Source: Eubacteriales bacterium (GTDB lineage: Bacteria > Bacillota > Clostridia > Oscillospirales > CAG-272). Taken from it: a stretch of DNA of 64,000 nucleotides. The DNA is taken from positions 13,978-77,977 of the forward strand of contig JAZNCH010000053.1 of the NCBI GenBank assembly GCA_045587445.1, given 5' to 3'. The notes under the pieces were generated by a model. That model saw only the letters and a program-made list of their open reading frames with translations. It was not told where the DNA came from and did not search any database. Both the position numbers and the translations under genes were made by a program. Positions 33,429 to 44,225 of this stretch are shown piece after piece. How positions within the stretch are numbered: the stretch's first letter is position 1; each line of letters begins with the position of its first letter.

Positions 33429-33468
33429 GAGTGCATATGGGCAATTTGCCTATGTGCACTCGTTTTTT
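33429..33468. terminator. Bidirectional terminator closing the fibre locus and the convergent gene
   Basis: gagtgcata...tatgtgcactc hairpin followed by tttttt on the plus strand. Confidence 0.55.
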
Positions 33469-33707
33469 GGGTTTAATTTGTTTTTTCTAATCACGACGTT
33501 CACTGTCCTGACAATTTGTTCGTTTGAAAGCTTGTTTTCTTTTTGCATTGAGGAACGTAGCTTTTTTTGACAAGCGATGCATAATTGGCCGCAGCCGACT
33601 TCATAGTTACTGCGCAATTCGATAGGTGTTGATATGGGGACGTCTGTCATTTCTCCGCACATAACACAACGTTCAAATATATTTAACTTATCTGTCATTT
33701 TATTCAT
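33450..33707 (-). CDS. Small zinc-ribbon protein (last gene of the fibre locus)
   Basis: 85 aa with CVMCG...CGQLCIAC. Start overlaps the upstream stop by 8 nt. Confidence 0.55.
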   Translation of the reverse strand: MNKMTDKLNIFERCVMCGEMTDVPISTPIELRSNYEVGCGQLCIACQKKLRSSMQKENKLSNEQIVRTVNVVIRKNKLNPKNECT

Positions 33708-34656
33708 TTGCCTCGTTTATGGGAGAGCCTGAAGTTTCAGGACTGTCAGGGAGAGTGGTTTCTTCTTGAATTTCGGCTGGAGATTCAGATAGTGCAGTTT
33801 CCGGTGCGGTAGTCAATAGAGCGGTTGTTTCGGGAACAGTCGTAATCTGAACCGTTGTTTCCGGTGTTTTAATTGATGTCTCCGTAGAAGTGGTTTCCGA
33901 TGTGATTGGTTCTGTAGTAGAATCAGGAATTTTCGTTGATTCGGGAACAGTGATTTCTGCCGGTTTCTTGGTTTCCTCTTTAGGGGAAGTTGAGGGGATA
34001 TTGTTTTGAGGCTCGTTCTCAGAAGACGTCTTTTCCGTTGTAGAAGGTAAAGTTTGAGGTGGTTTTGAAAGCATTAACGGTGGTGTTACAGACAATGTAA
34101 TATCATTGTTGTCCTTAGTTATATACAAAGGGTTATTATTGTTTTTATATCCGTAGTAGGAAGAGGTTCCCCAATGAGAAAGGAAAGTAATTCTTGTATC
34201 ATTATCGGATGTAATGGTGAACGTTAACGTTTCAGTATTACCGTTGCCGTCTCTGCCGAGCTGTTGAGTATGGTATCTGCTTTCGCATCTGTCTGCGGTG
34301 ATGATAATGAATCCGGTTTTTGCAGTGCTGCGTTCAGAATGCTTGAGGGTAACGAAATAGGTGGTGTTAGCATCTATAACAGCATAGGGTGCACTGCGGT
34401 TGTCTGTATTTACCGTAATATGTTCGCCATTATCATTTGTAATTTGAACTGATACGTTGGCTTCAAAATTAGCAGATTTTATAGTATTTTTGGAGGAGGT
34501 AATATCGTGAGAGAAATAGGCAAAAGCGGTAGTGCCCATTGCAATTAAGCAAAATACAATAACTGTGATAGTTGTAGCAAGACGTAATAGAATAGCTTTT
34601 TCGCTTATTTTACTGTGTGCAGAAATATGAAAATGATTATTTAACTGCTTTATCAT
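33700..34656 (-). CDS. TasA-like subunit with SipW-type signal peptide and a Thr/Pro/Glu/Ser-rich C-terminal tail
   Basis: TM then TAFAYFSHDITSSKNTIKSANFEANVSV. A globular part of about 150 aa, then about 130 aa of low-complexity TPES-rich sequence. AGGAGG SD. Confidence 0.7.
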   Translation of the reverse strand: MIKQLNNHFHISAHSKISEKAILLRLATTITVIVFCLIAMGTTAFAYFSHDITSSKNTIKSANFEANVSVQITNDNGEHITVNTDNRSAPYAVIDANTTYFVTLKHSERSTAKTGFIIITADRCESRYHTQQLGRDGNGNTETLTFTITSDNDTRITFLSHWGTSSYYGYKNNNNPLYITKDNNDITLSVTPPLMLSKPPQTLPSTTEKTSSENEPQNNIPSTSPKEETKKPAEITVPESTKIPDSTTEPITSETTSTETSIKTPETTVQITTVPETTALLTTAPETALSESPAEIQEETTLPDSPETSGSPINEANE

Positions 34657-34696
34657 ACAATATACCTCCTTTCATAGACTCAGATGACAAAAAGCA

Positions 34697-35356
34697 TTAA
34701 GGGTTATTTTTTATCTGTTCAGCCGAAACAATTATACCGAGCTCGACTGAGGGCGGTGTGTTTCCTCTGTAATTAGCGACGTTTCCAACCTCTTCCGGCA
34801 TACGTACGATAAGGGAAAAATAAGCCGATTCACCTGCGTTCAAAATATTATTTTCAGATTTAAAGTAGTTATTAAGTTTTTGGTTTGCAATTTTCTTTGC
34901 GGCATCGCGGTCGGGATAATTATTTTGCATGTCATCTTTATTTTTGTATGTAACGAGCCCGAATTTCAAATAATCCTGTAGGTTGAATCGTTGCCCGAAC
35001 ACGTTAGAAGCGAGGGTAAAGCCGTTAACGTTTACGGCGGTATTGTATTTAAATTCAACCGTGCCGTTATTATCTATTCTGAGATTAACTATCTGAATAT
35101 ATCCGGGCTCGTACAAAGCATTTTTGTCAAAGATGTCCGTTTGACCGTCAATTTCTTTCCAAGAGCCGTCGGGTGTCTGATAAAAGACGTCGAGGTCGAA
35201 TTCGGCAAAATGGAAGATGTTGTTTATTTCTGGAGAAGTGTCGGTAAACCAAGCCAGAGAAGCACCGGTACCAAGTATAGCCCAAACAATGATAGCAACA
35301 AGACTGAGAATCAAGGCTATTTTTTTATATGGAGCTTTTTTAATATTAGATTTCAC
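34697..35356 (-). CDS. TasA/camelysin-like subunit with SipW-type signal peptide
   Basis: GASLAWFTDTSPE..., YEPGYIQIVNLRIDNNGTVEFKY, RMPEEVGNVANYRG...VSAEQ. Homologous by eye to the N-domain of the two large subunits. GTG start with an AAGGAGG SD. Confidence 0.75.
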   Translation of the reverse strand: MKSNIKKAPYKKIALILSLVAIIVWAILGTGASLAWFTDTSPEINNIFHFAEFDLDVFYQTPDGSWKEIDGQTDIFDKNALYEPGYIQIVNLRIDNNGTVEFKYNTAVNVNGFTLASNVFGQRFNLQDYLKFGLVTYKNKDDMQNNYPDRDAAKKIANQKLNNYFKSENNILNAGESAYFSLIVRMPEEVGNVANYRGNTPPSVELGIIVSAEQIKNNP

Positions 35357-35384
35357 GCCTTAATCCTCCTTTGTTCAGCGATTT

Positions 35385-42506: not shown

Positions 42507-42576
42507 ACAATCAAAAGACACAAGCGAATCTCTTATGCCTTTTGATTATCGCCTATCCCTCGGTGTGAGGGATAGG
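42507..42576. repeat. Locus-specific double-hairpin element, copy 1
   Basis: acaatcaaaagacacaag-cgaatct-cttatgccttttgattat, then cctatccc-tcggtgtga-gggatagg. Confidence 0.7.
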
Positions 42577-42604
42577 GAAGAGTAGTATTTTACAATATAA
42601 AACT

Positions 42605-42835
42605 TCAATATTTTACAAATGGAAGTATGGATAATAACAATCTTCGTCTTTGTTTTATCCAATATTTTTTTTCAGAGCCCCAAGAGCGTCGGATTTCAGT
42701 GTTTATATATTGTAATTCTAAAGAAAAATTTTTGAAAAATACGACCAATCCGATTAATAAAAACAATAAAAATAATACGACTATTATTCCGAAAAGAAAA
42801 TAAATTAATGAATCTGAGGGATTTGCGGGGGACAT
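42605..42835 (-). CDS. Small single-pass membrane protein
   Basis: 76 aa, AAGGAGA SD 6 nt upstream, TM IYFLFGIIVVLFLLFLLIGLVVFF, basic C-terminus. Confidence 0.55.
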   Translation of the reverse strand: MSPANPSDSLIYFLFGIIVVLFLLFLLIGLVVFFKNFSLELQYINTEIRRSWGSEKKYWIKQRRRLLLSILPFVKY

Positions 42836-42867
42836 TGTTTTCTCCTTTTTTTTGCGCTAAATGATGG

Positions 42868-43644
42868 TTAGTTTTTTTCTTGTGAGCTTGTTTCGATTGC
42901 TTGAACAGCTTCATCCGATGTTGTTTTTGCAACTTCTTCTTTTTCTGTATGTGCAGAAGAAGCTGTATTTTGTCCTTCAAGCTGGGCTTTCAATGCGCGC
43001 AGTTCTTCGAGCATCTTTGCATTTTCAGCCTTTTCGGCTTCTATTTTTTCTTTCTCTTTGTTCATTTCTTCCAGTTGTTCTTGTCTGTATCTGCGGAACA
43101 GATTAAAGAATTTTATGCCTTCATAAAGTATAATCAGCATAAAAGGAGTGAAGATACACACAAAATAACCCGGAGTAGTCTTCAAGAAATTAAAGAAAGT
43201 ACCAAGTGTGGGGATATGGTTTTCATATTTACCGAGCACGTAAGGATATGTAACGATAGTTTCATCATCGGTATCAGTTGTTGTACCGTAAGTGATAAAG
43301 CCGGGGTTACCTTCCGAATCGGTGGTAAGCTTTCTTATTTTATGAGTAACAGTTTCTCCGAAGCTTTGTGCGTTTTGCGACATAAACGTAATTATATCGC
43401 CCTCTTTGAGAGTGGAAGGGTCAACCTCTTTTACGAGAATCAATGAACCGGCGTTAAAATCTGTAGCCGCCATTGAATCTGAGTTTACTATGTACATCTT
43501 ATAGCCCAAAAGGTCGCGGTCGTTTCTGTTAAACGTCGTTACGGAAATGACCGTGAAAATCATCATTGATACTGCGAGTAGTACAATTAACCAAACAATT
43601 GTGGTCTTGATTATGTTAAATACTTTTTTCACTGCACTTAACAC
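42868..43644 (-). CDS. sipW: SipW-type signal peptidase I, copy 1 (divergent Ser box), with a C-terminal TM and a long coiled-coil tail
   Basis: N-terminal TM, YIVNSDSMAATDFNAGSLILV, ETVTHKIRKL, second TM, then about 80 aa of EK-rich helix. The GTG at 43644 overlaps the TetR stop. The GTG at 43632 is an alternative start. Confidence 0.72.
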   Translation of the reverse strand: MLSAVKKVFNIIKTTIVWLIVLLAVSMMIFTVISVTTFNRNDRDLLGYKMYIVNSDSMAATDFNAGSLILVKEVDPSTLKEGDIITFMSQNAQSFGETVTHKIRKLTTDSEGNPGFITYGTTTDTDDETIVTYPYVLGKYENHIPTLGTFFNFLKTTPGYFVCIFTPFMLIILYEGIKFFNLFRRYRQEQLEEMNKEKEKIEAEKAENAKMLEELRALKAQLEGQNTASSAHTEKEEVAKTTSDEAVQAIETSSQEKN

Positions 43645-44225
43645 TCCTTTGTTTTAAAATACTGTCCAACCGAAGCGTAAACCAAACGAAATACGTGTTC
43701 AGTAGTATCGTCATTATCGGGGATAGCACCGTCATAGACTTTTACTGCAAAGTCAAGCAAGACGTTTAGGATGTGATTTAAAAGCATCCACACGTTTGCT
43801 TCGTTGCGAAAGGCATCACTAAACTTTTCTACAAGCGGAGCAAATCTTTTTTTATGTTCCTCTGCCGAATATTTTGCAAAATACGGTGAATAATAGTATC
43901 TTATGAAAGAAAGGCATTTGTCTTTGTTGCTAAGCAAAAATCGCCAAATTGCAGTATAGAATATCCAACACCGCATTTCGAACTTCAGTTCTTTCATATA
44001 CATAACGGAAATGTGTTGGATAGCTTTTGTAACCAGCTCTTCATCTAATTTTGAAAAGGTTTTTGCAAGCAAGTCTTCTTTGTCTGCAAAACAACGATAG
44101 ATATAGGCTTCGTTTGTGGCAGTTTCTAAACTGATTTGTTTTGTGGTTGCTTTTCCGAGTCCGTCTCTTGCAATGACATGAATAGTACCGTTAATTAACT
44201 TAGAACGGATTTCATCCTGTTTCAT
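43638..44225 (-). CDS. TetR/AcrR-family transcriptional regulator
   Basis: N-terminal HTH GLGKATTKQISLETATNEAYIYRCFADKEDL. 195 aa. Confidence 0.82.
   Translation of the reverse strand: MKQDEIRSKLINGTIHVIARDGLGKATTKQISLETATNEAYIYRCFADKEDLLAKTFSKLDEELVTKAIQHISVMYMKELKFEMRCWIFYTAIWRFLLSNKDKCLSFIRYYYSPYFAKYSAEEHKKRFAPLVEKFSDAFRNEANVWMLLNHILNVLLDFAVKVYDGAIPDNDDTTEHVFRLVYASVGQYFKTKEC

Follow-up and report, generated by a model that had tools for sequence, protein, structure and literature searches.

The 64,000-nucleotide stretch of DNA analysed here (the window) is part of contig JAZNCH010000053.1 of an Eubacteriales bacterium. Between positions 33450 and 44225 it holds twelve co-directional open reading frames (ORFs), all on the minus strand, in the order TetR-SipW1-TM76-L632-SipW2-S254-L663-S201-Srt221-S219-S318-C85. 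As a whole, this operon-like locus most likely encodes a surface fibre that is anchored to the cell wall, is built of TasA/BsaA-type subunits, and carries swappable adhesin-like modules. An earlier note on this DNA had described the gene content as two SipW-type peptidases, multiple TasA/BsaA paralogues, one sorted protein, and a TetR regulator, and both profile searches and hhalign comparisons agree with that description. The genes and intergenic features are as follows.

43638..44225, minus strand: TetR-family regulator, the first gene of the locus (PF00440 TetR_N, 27 bits against a cut-off of 24).
42868..43644, minus strand: SipW1, an archaeal/endoplasmic reticulum (ER)-type signal peptidase I (TIGR02228); the start codon, GTG, is uncertain.
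42605..42835, minus strand: TM76, a 76-residue protein with a single transmembrane helix and a conserved basic C-terminal region (conserved motif).
42501..42576, minus strand: intergenic double-hairpin element upstream of L632 (direct repeat and RNA fold).
40546..42390, minus strand: L632 (614 residues), a TasA-type N-domain with a SipW-type signal peptide and a payload of ~370 residues (Peptidase_M73, TIGR04088).
40436..40511, minus strand: intergenic double-hairpin element downstream of L632 and upstream of SipW2 (direct repeat and RNA fold).
39780..40412, minus strand: SipW2, the second archaeal/ER-type signal peptidase I (TIGR02228).
38994..39686, minus strand: S254 (230 residues), a small BsaA-like subunit with a full Asn/Glu/Lys triad, candidate adaptor (TIGR04088, hhalign).
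36913..38904, minus strand: L663 (663 residues), a TasA-type N-domain with a repeat-rich payload of ~420 residues, at a hypervariable cassette position (Peptidase_M73, TIGR04088).
36660..36870, minus strand: the stretch between L663 and S201, which holds a terminator-like hairpin at 36696-36678 and a copy of the hairpin element that is split and has diverged (hairpin scan).
36066..36632, minus strand: S201 (188 residues), BsaA-like, the most conserved subunit and a candidate isopeptide-locked shaft pilin (triad, BsaA-family relatives).
35385..36050, minus strand: Srt221 (221 residues), an ordinary signal peptide, a beta-sandwich of ~155 residues, and a PPQTG signal; candidate wall anchor (TIGR01167).
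34697..35356, minus strand: S219 (219 residues), a small subunit of TasA type with kinship to the L N-domains (blastp, hhalign).
33700..34656, minus strand: S318 (318 residues), a SipW-type signal peptide, an unclassified domain of ~140 residues, and a Pro/Thr/Ser/Glu-rich tail of ~120 residues (N-terminal hhalign match).
33450..33707, minus strand: C85, an 85-residue, four-Cys (zinc-ribbon-like) protein (CxxC...CxxC motif).

The twelve ORFs and their coordinates stand as first listed. The starts of S201, S254, L663, S219, S318, SipW2, TM76, and TetR match deposited NCBI gene calls exactly, and the lengths noted earlier for S201 (188 residues), S254 (230), and L663 (663) equal those of the deposited calls. 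NCBI gene calls on one contig reproduce eight locus proteins residue for residue; S219, with the start chosen here, and Srt221 (P0001) are also on record. The 614-residue start of L632 was set at the ATG at 42390 on the basis of an AAGGAGG 8 nucleotides upstream. Strong Shine-Dalgarno sequences had been ascribed to all twelve genes, and overlaps or gaps of less than 30 nucleotides to several. GGAGG-type sequences are found at most of them, but those at SipW1 and C85 are weak. Two junctions overlap (TetR/SipW1 and S318/C85), two are shorter than 30 nucleotides, and the rest span 32-280 nucleotides. The locus ends at a bidirectional terminator-like hairpin (33429-33461). The genes around it belong to ordinary metabolism (GH20, a NagA-like amidohydrolase, and a ROK-like gene), and the locus is therefore a discrete insert-like block. 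A promoter scan of the locus gave no enrichment of promoter-like sites over shuffles. An Rfam scan of the locus yielded no riboswitch and no known RNA, the lone match (E 0.08) being a eukaryotic element that is taken as chance.

We scanned one genome per species for related loci, and 80 loci were returned. All of them come from metagenome-assembled genomes of uncultured Clostridia labelled Acutalibacteraceae, Oscillospiraceae, Faecousia, or "Eubacteriales", with human, goat, sheep, and deer gut as the sources. Compared ORF by ORF, the order TetR-SipW1-TM76-(L)-SipW2-S254-L(1-3)-S201-Srt221-S219-S318-C85 recurs in ~80 genomes wherever the contig is long enough. Since the order recurs in roughly 80 different genomes, the arrangement is more than chance. 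Identity across species is ~80% for S201, ~78% for SipW1, ~72% for SipW2, ~70% for Srt221, and ~60% for S219, and falls to ~45% for S254 (with a subset at 90%) and ~40% for S318. A TetR orthologue occupies the equivalent position in many of the related loci. TM76 has no match in the family profile searches; its motif EI.R..G.E..YWI.QRRRL.LS..PFVKY is conserved, and an orthologue follows SipW1 in 19 loci. The relatives of Srt221 number about 3,700-3,900 at 90% clustering and are mostly from gut metagenomes.

SipW1 and SipW2 score 70.4 and 85.5 bits, respectively, on TIGR02228 (archaeal-type signal peptidase I), both above the cut-off of 51.85 bits. The catalytic pattern, a Ser in SxSM and a His in TH(K/Q), is conserved as SDSM and THK in SipW1 (33 orthologues) and as SGSM and ATH in SipW2 (46 orthologues). 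The two peptidases share 27% identity, and SipW1 carries a C-terminal transmembrane helix and a coiled-coil-like tail. On NF046067, the equivalog model of Bacillus SipW, they score 83.2 and 82.0 bits, below the cut-off of 190. Both peptidases are of the same enzyme type as Bacillus SipW but are not orthologues of it.

Six proteins had been credited with SipW-type signal peptides. The cleavage site A↓(W/Y)(F/Y), in which the arrow marks the predicted cut, is indeed 96-100% conserved across all six substrate families, but the cut-off of TIGR04088 (SipW-cognate signal peptide, 19 bits) is reached only by L632 (23.6 bits), S254 (24.4 bits), and L663 (25.8 bits). S201 scores 14.9 bits, and S219 and S318 have no match. 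The sites fall into two classes, A↓WF (the L proteins, S254, and S219) and A↓Y(Y/F) (S201 and S318); that the two classes map to the two peptidases is speculation.

The subunits were compared with PF12389 (Peptidase_M73, the TasA/CalY/camelysin family; gathering score 22.5 bits) and with one another by hhalign, using profiles from ~80 related loci. L632 (25.3 bits) and L663 (26.5 bits) pass the Pfam cut-off, S254 (21.2 bits) and S201 (17.5 bits) are below it, and S219, S318, and Srt221 have no match. S219 matches L632 and L663 by blastp (E 1e-26) and the L N-domains by hhalign (100%); hhalign also connects S219 with S254 (98%) and S201 with S254 (99.6%). These links and the Pfam matches together place L632, L663, S254, S201, and S219 in one superfamily. 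Of the six TasA-type paralogues originally counted, these five thus belong to one TasA/BsaA superfamily, but S318 shares only the signal peptide and the N-terminal strand. The hhalign match of S318 to the L N-domains (94% probability) covers only 44 N-terminal columns, namely the signal peptide and the first strand, and no relative of the rest was detected by hhalign or in the family searches. S318 was accordingly rejected as a sixth TasA-fold paralogue, since hhalign gave no support beyond the N-terminus. The Pfam name, Peptidase_M73, would suggest that "camelysin" proteins are secreted metalloproteases instead of structural subunits. However, the assignment of CalY as a peptidase is regarded as a likely misidentification (PMC11580942), TasA and BsaA are structural fibre subunits, and no metalloprotease motif was noted in the locus sequences. 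The protease reading of "camelysin" was rejected on this literature and is scarcely credible here.

The relationship with the BsaA family should be noted, since it bears on the residues described below. On TIGR04090 (the BsaA family, cut-off 60 bits), S201 scores 31.7 bits (E 1.2e-7) and S254 25.9 bits, both below the cut-off. There are 1687 relatives of S201 among 50%-identity representatives. Ten that were sampled all match TIGR04090 (32-63 bits), and only one of them, P0219, is above the cut-off. S201 is therefore a clade neighbouring the BsaA family and not a member of it by the curated cut-off. S201 and P0219 share 33% identity (E 2e-32) in a full-length alignment in which the N, E, and K residues are matched.

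In C. perfringens BsaA, Asn35 forms an intermolecular isopeptide bond with Lys74 of the next subunit, with Glu56 as the catalyst, and alanine substitutions of Asn35, Glu56, and Lys74 abolish the ladders resistant to sodium dodecyl sulphate (PMC11580942). Through P0219 as the TIGR04090-passing intermediate, the residues of S201 and S254 would line up with this triad. In S201, Asn38 (in ATNVVTSG), Glu51 (in IHE), and Lys74 (in PGDIVSK) are kept in 73 of 73 orthologues, and in S254, Asn37, Glu59, and Lys89 are kept in 43 of 43. Among the 129 best distant representatives of S201, the Asn is kept in 93%, the Glu in 67%, and the Lys in 72%. The full triad is absent from L632, L663, S219, S318, and Srt221. 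The L N-domains keep the donor Asn in 98% of 88 domains and the Glu in 51%, and have no acceptor Lys; S219 keeps the donor Asn (Asn46) in 79 of 79 orthologues and lacks the acceptor Glu and Lys; and S318 keeps the donor Asn in 79% of orthologues and lacks the acceptor Lys. S201 and S254 carry both donor and acceptor residues and would therefore be chain propagators, while L632, L663, S219, and S318, which donate only, would be end subunits. The synteny in ~80 genomes and the conserved triad in two subunits strengthen the pilus-like reading of the locus.

At least two allelic classes of S254 exist. In a few genomes (including those of loci L001, L002, L007, and L032) identity is 90-94%, against 29-53% elsewhere. 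In the 90-94% class, the neighbouring core genes are only ~70-80% identical, and the 90%-identity cluster has 218 members. This pattern suggests exchange of S254, or strong constraint on one type.

The sorting signal of Srt221, described earlier as a PPQTG signal, is real. Srt221 passes TIGR01167 (LPXTG_anchor; 16.2 bits against a cut-off of 15.9), and 70 of 81 orthologues keep a [P/A/S]PxTG motif together with a transmembrane helix and a basic tail. In type, the motif is similar to the (S/P)PxTG signals that SrtB of C. difficile uses. The signal peptide of Srt221 is of the ordinary AxA type (SHA↓ADGK) and not SipW-type. An AlphaFold (AF2) model from a 58-sequence alignment shows a beta-sandwich with a predicted local distance difference test score (pLDDT) of 76.9 and a predicted template modelling score (pTM) of 0.75, in which confidence is low over the first ~30 residues of the mature protein. 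It supersedes an earlier model from 20 sequences, which had a pLDDT of 64 and an uninformative Foldseek list. In a Foldseek search against the Protein Data Bank (PDB), the sole match of the newer model at E <= 1e-3 is 7ueg (AbpA, a TasA-like bundling pilin), with E 4.3e-4, probability 1.0, template modelling (TM) scores of 0.41/0.37, and sequence identity of ~11%. PDB sequence searches with the family profiles of Srt221, S201, and S219 gave nothing useful.

The positions in Srt221 that correspond to the donor and acceptor residues of S201 should also be noted. The PGDSLTQTITVNN segment of Srt221 (PGDxLxQxITVxN) matches PGDIVSKKVSIEN of S201 position for position, and the mature N-terminus, DG(K/N)VTYSGN, parallels ATNVVTSGN of S201. 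At the site of the acceptor Lys of S201, Srt221 has Gln65, which is invariant (81 of 81 orthologues). At the position equivalent to the donor Asn (Lys27), Lys is found in 63% of orthologues and Asn in 21%. Because of the Gln at the acceptor site, no covalent lock between shaft and anchor is predicted; Gln65 could reflect a non-covalent junction or a different cross-link chemistry. With moderate confidence, we regard Srt221 as a diverged member of the superfamily that links the fibre to the wall.

The LPXTG-type signal of Srt221 and the Lys near the mature N-terminus in 63% of its orthologues could instead point to a Gram-positive pilus of the classical kind, polymerised by a pilus-specific sortase that would join Srt221 molecules as pilins. 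However, a class C sortase is absent from the window and from 78 of 80 related loci, a YPKN-type pilin motif is absent, and profile searches gave no match to SpaA- or Cna-type domains in the locus proteins. Furthermore, Lys27 is not conserved, its place being taken by Asn in the 21% given above. A classical pilus is thus very improbable, and the donor-strand fibre remains the preferred reading. A sortase-like ORF lies nearby in only two of the 80 related loci. The locus has no sortase, and a sortase encoded elsewhere must therefore be assumed for the attachment of Srt221.

L632 and L663 differ from the other subunits in their payloads. Their N-domains are 70% identical, and across loci the L proteins are related in the N-domain only (30-55% identity), with lengths of 244-2015 residues. 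Beta-helix payloads had been proposed for both large subunits. The 87 payload regions that were scanned include BspA-type LRR_5 (12 of 87) and Beta_helix (12 of 87) and, in a few cases, Peptidase_M26_N/GLUG, pectate-lyase-like adhesive, or NosD domains, and most have no Pfam match. Beta_helix and GLUG therefore do occur in orthologous loci, but the two payloads of this locus give sub-threshold matches only (Pentapeptide_4, E 0.0055; Peptidase_M26_N, E 0.0012); for L632, these are to Peptidase_M26_N and GLUG. PDB sequence searches gave no relative of either payload. A beta-helix fold of the L632 and L663 payloads is plausible. A sorting signal was found in none of 103 L proteins.

The DNA around the large subunits indicates how the payloads vary. 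When 36676-38746 is compared with L001, the closest relative, the body of L663 shows no nucleotide similarity, although the DNA on either side is 86-88% identical. This points to a swap of the L663 body as a cassette, one breakpoint lying in the conserved 5' end, which encodes the signal peptide and donor strand, and the other in the intergenic region downstream. A 300-nucleotide direct repeat with 84% identity is formed by the 5' part of L663 (38516-38815) and that of L632 (42002-42301). The two copies of the 76-nucleotide intergenic element (40436-40511 and 42501-42576) form an 88% direct repeat and directly flank L632. Each folds into two adjacent strong hairpins with no U-tract (z -6.4 and z -8.1, respectively). 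Related copies are present in 11 other loci, with 19 of 20 in coding orientation, and nearly all of them either follow an L gene directly or occupy the TM76-SipW2 interval. The element may be a cassette boundary or recombination site, or an element for mRNA processing or stability. The large subunits behave as hypervariable cassettes with adhesin-type payloads in orthologous loci.

This variability raises the question of whether L632 and L663 belong to the fibre. Their TasA-like N-domains could be export or docking modules of individual secreted or surface adhesins or enzymes, with the small paralogues forming a separate homopolymer. The missing acceptor Lys and the Glu conserved in only 51% of the L N-domains would fit such a role, as would the size and diversity of the payloads, and the co-assembly of the L proteins with the small subunits is a prediction. 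Contrarily, the donor Asn is nearly invariant in the 88 N-domains, the signal and strand region is the most conserved part of the L genes, also at the DNA level, and the L genes always sit between the peptidase and shaft genes. Conservation of the signal and strand region is what co-assembly would lead us to expect, because the strand would have to fit a conserved partner. We therefore consider it quite unlikely that the large subunits lie outside any polymer, and treat them below as fibre components.

The remaining small genes and the neighbourhood are described briefly. The overlaps at 33700-33707 (S318 stop/C85 start) and 43638-43644 (TetR stop/SipW1 start) suggest translational coupling. 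The CxxC...CxxC motif of C85 is conserved in 25 orthologues, and the family searches gave no profile match above threshold. The cytoplasmic N-region of S318 ahead of the transmembrane helix is conserved; because of this conservation and the coupling of the two genes, the zinc-ribbon protein C85 might act on that region. In the related locus L044, the S318 orthologue (L044:11366-12130) does not have only a P/T/S/E-rich tail but ends LysM-like (…IQIGQQLKIPV), which is consistent with a peptidoglycan-associated role for the S318 family.

The genes that bracket the locus at 31058-32962 and 45564-48183 (GH20 hexosaminidase-like, ROK-like, and NagA-like amidohydrolase) form an amino-sugar utilisation context, as would suit an organism that forages on glycans in the gut. 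Two further ORFs are located between TetR and the ROK-like gene: a 64-residue, Cys-rich ORF of the KTR family of zinc ribbons (44420-44614, minus strand) and a 98-residue XRE-type helix-turn-helix regulator (45183-45479, plus strand). Serine recombinase or tyrosine integrase genes flank several of the related loci (L078, L038, L044, and others; 7 downstream and 6 + 4 upstream), a hint of mobility, in some genomes, of the locus itself or of the region around it.

We consider it rather probable that the locus encodes a TasA/BsaA-type surface fibre in which neighbouring subunits are completed by N-terminal strands, with the subunit roles and wall anchor proposed here. In this model, the operon would be controlled by TetR, and the subunits would be exported with uncleaved SipW-type signal anchors. 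By analogy with TasA and BsaA, SipW1 or SipW2 would cut after the conserved Ala (A↓WF or A↓Y(Y/F)) to free the N-terminal strand, and the freed strand would enter the beta-sandwich of a neighbouring subunit by donor-strand exchange. An Asn-Lys isopeptide bond would then form in the S201 and S254 acceptors, as their conserved triad suggests. The shaft would consist of repeated S201 subunits, and S254 would be a second adaptor that propagates the chain. L632, L663, S219, and S318 could be locked into a shaft subunit but would be unable to lock the next one, and should therefore sit at one fibre end. With one of these four donor-only subunits per end, alternative fibres with different end modules would result, and L632 and L663 would present the variable adhesin-like payloads there. 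Srt221 would be joined to peptidoglycan by the sortase encoded elsewhere and would tie the fibre to the wall.

The order of the subunits along the fibre depends on its polarity. If growth occurs at the base, as in the BsaA model, each new membrane-held subunit would accept a strand, so that the base would hold an acceptor and the donor-only subunits would lie distally, at the tip. In the alternative TasA/TapA model, a wall-associated nucleator would donate the first strand. Either polarity may apply to this locus.

Several observations weigh against this fibre model or parts of it. S201 does not reach the curated cut-offs for TIGR04090, TIGR04088, and PF12389, and the equivalence of its triad with that of BsaA is drawn through P0219 and not from a direct alignment with BsaA. 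The folds of the L632 and L663 payloads are supported by sub-threshold matches only. The kinship of Srt221 is weak (hhalign 35%, TM scores 0.37-0.41), with TasA absent from the top 50 Foldseek matches, and Srt221 has Gln instead of Lys at the acceptor position. The window has no ORF of sortase size with a TLxTC motif, and 78 of the 80 related loci have no sortase-like ORF nearby. Finally, in C. perfringens strain 13, BsaA oligomers are membrane-associated and not linked to the peptidoglycan wall, and the adjacent sortase (SrtB) is dispensable.

The strain 13 result, together with the ordinary signal peptide of Srt221, its missing acceptor Lys, its marginal hhalign homology to the other subunits, and the lack of a sortase gene in the locus, would suit loose biofilm-matrix fibres that are released or membrane-associated. 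Srt221 would then be a separate wall protein and at most a non-covalent receptor of the fibre. However, Srt221 lies between S201 and S219 in essentially all of the ~80 loci and is ~70% conserved, its best fold match is a donor-strand pilin, and it resembles S201 in the N-terminus and the PGD strand. Moreover, a bsaB-like gene that encodes an LPXTG motif is present in most strains of C. perfringens, and LPXTG-BsaB has been considered a possible anchor (Kivimaki et al., PMC11580942). Loose fibres are therefore an unlikely explanation, though the strongest of those weighed here, and we retain the wall-anchored fibre as the preferred one.

A more far-reaching proposal is that such loci represent a third route of Gram-positive pilus building beside sortase-polymerised and type IV pili. 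It would combine peptidase-gated donor-strand growth, an Asn-Lys lock, a donor-only and exchangeable adhesin end, a sortase-anchored base of acceptor type, and two peptidases for two site classes, and would be widespread in uncultured gut Oscillospirales. We put this forward tentatively, as a possibility that we do not favour. If true, it would explain how TasA/BsaA fibres are anchored and functionalised.

The earlier note had proposed a multi-paralogue, wall-tethered TasA-type fibre as uncharacterised. In the literature searches, neither this Oscillospirales locus nor TasA-type subunits that bear payloads were found described, and the same holds for SipW peptidases in pairs and for a division into donor-only and propagator subunits. 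However, BsaA/TasA genes have been reported often to occur in operons with LPxTG proteins, sortases, and several paralogues, and donor-strand heteropolymers have been suggested (Kivimaki et al. 2024/25 preprint, PMC11580942), so that the novelty holds for this locus and not for the principle. The locus is real, widespread, and conceptually anticipated; it is an elaborate variant of a known fibre system and not a new kind of machine. TasA/BsaA fibres are known to serve as scaffolds in the biofilm matrix and to be made up of one or two small subunits. The present locus, with its ~80 natural variants, gives predictions at the residue level: a subunit with Asn, Glu, and Lys would propagate the chain, one with Asn only would cap one end, and one protein would tie the fibre to the wall. 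If these are true, abundant uncultured gut Clostridia would show diverse adhesin cassettes (BspA-LRR, beta-helix, and GLUG) on a covalently locked fibre, which would be relevant to gut colonisation and to the engineering of very stable, cargo-displaying protein fibres.

The closest known system is sipW-bsaABC of C. perfringens, in which BsaA forms donor-strand "exchange and lock" fibres (Obana 2020, PMC7395162; PMC11580942). Both loci have a SipW-type peptidase followed by BsaA-family subunits. The triad of S201 and S254 is in the same arrangement as Asn35/Glu56/Lys74 of BsaA, and paralogues without the triad are present in both systems (BsaB there; the L proteins, S219, and S318 here). In contrast to the single peptidase of C. 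perfringens, this locus has two, and it has five to six substrates, including two payload-bearing subunits of ~600 residues. The sorted protein differs too: its signal peptide is of the ordinary type, and Gln occupies its acceptor position. TetR takes the place of the BsaRS two-component system, and there is neither a vWA protein (BsaC) nor an adjacent sortase. S201 is below the TIGR04090 cut-off.

The tapA-sipW-tasA system of B. subtilis (TasA fibres, PDB 8AUR; PMC9674648, PMC10151520) shares the SipW-type peptidase and the SipW-dependent export, which is predicted here, and L632 and L663 pass the Pfam family of TasA and CalY. S318 resembles TapA, the nucleator/anchor, in layout: in both, an N-terminus like a donor strand precedes a small folded domain, and a long tail of low complexity follows. 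The body of S318 has no detectable homology to anything. Unlike the present locus, the B. subtilis system has one peptidase, and its TasA is without the isopeptide triad, a sortase-sorted component, or payload domains. In the CapP-TasA-CalY system of B. cereus (PMC13082335), two TasA-family paralogues co-assemble as heterofilaments with an accessory wall-localised protein, but that system is described as sortase-independent and has neither large payload subunits nor a second peptidase.

More distant systems share the principle of strand donation. The archaeal bundling pili (AbpA, PDB 7UEG; PMC9245690), which provide the best structural match of the Srt221 model, and the Sulfolobus threads (PMC9715654) have a TasA-like fold and strand donation, and the threads add intermolecular isopeptide bonds. 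Unlike the fibre proposed here, these pili and threads are homopolymeric and have no sortase anchoring and no adhesin cassettes. Chaperone-usher pili are unrelated in sequence, need a periplasmic chaperone and an outer-membrane usher, and have no signal-peptidase gating, isopeptide lock, or sortase, so that they offer a functional analogy only. They too are built by donor-strand exchange, and their single adhesin at one end, which is not extendable, is comparable with the donor-only L subunits proposed here.

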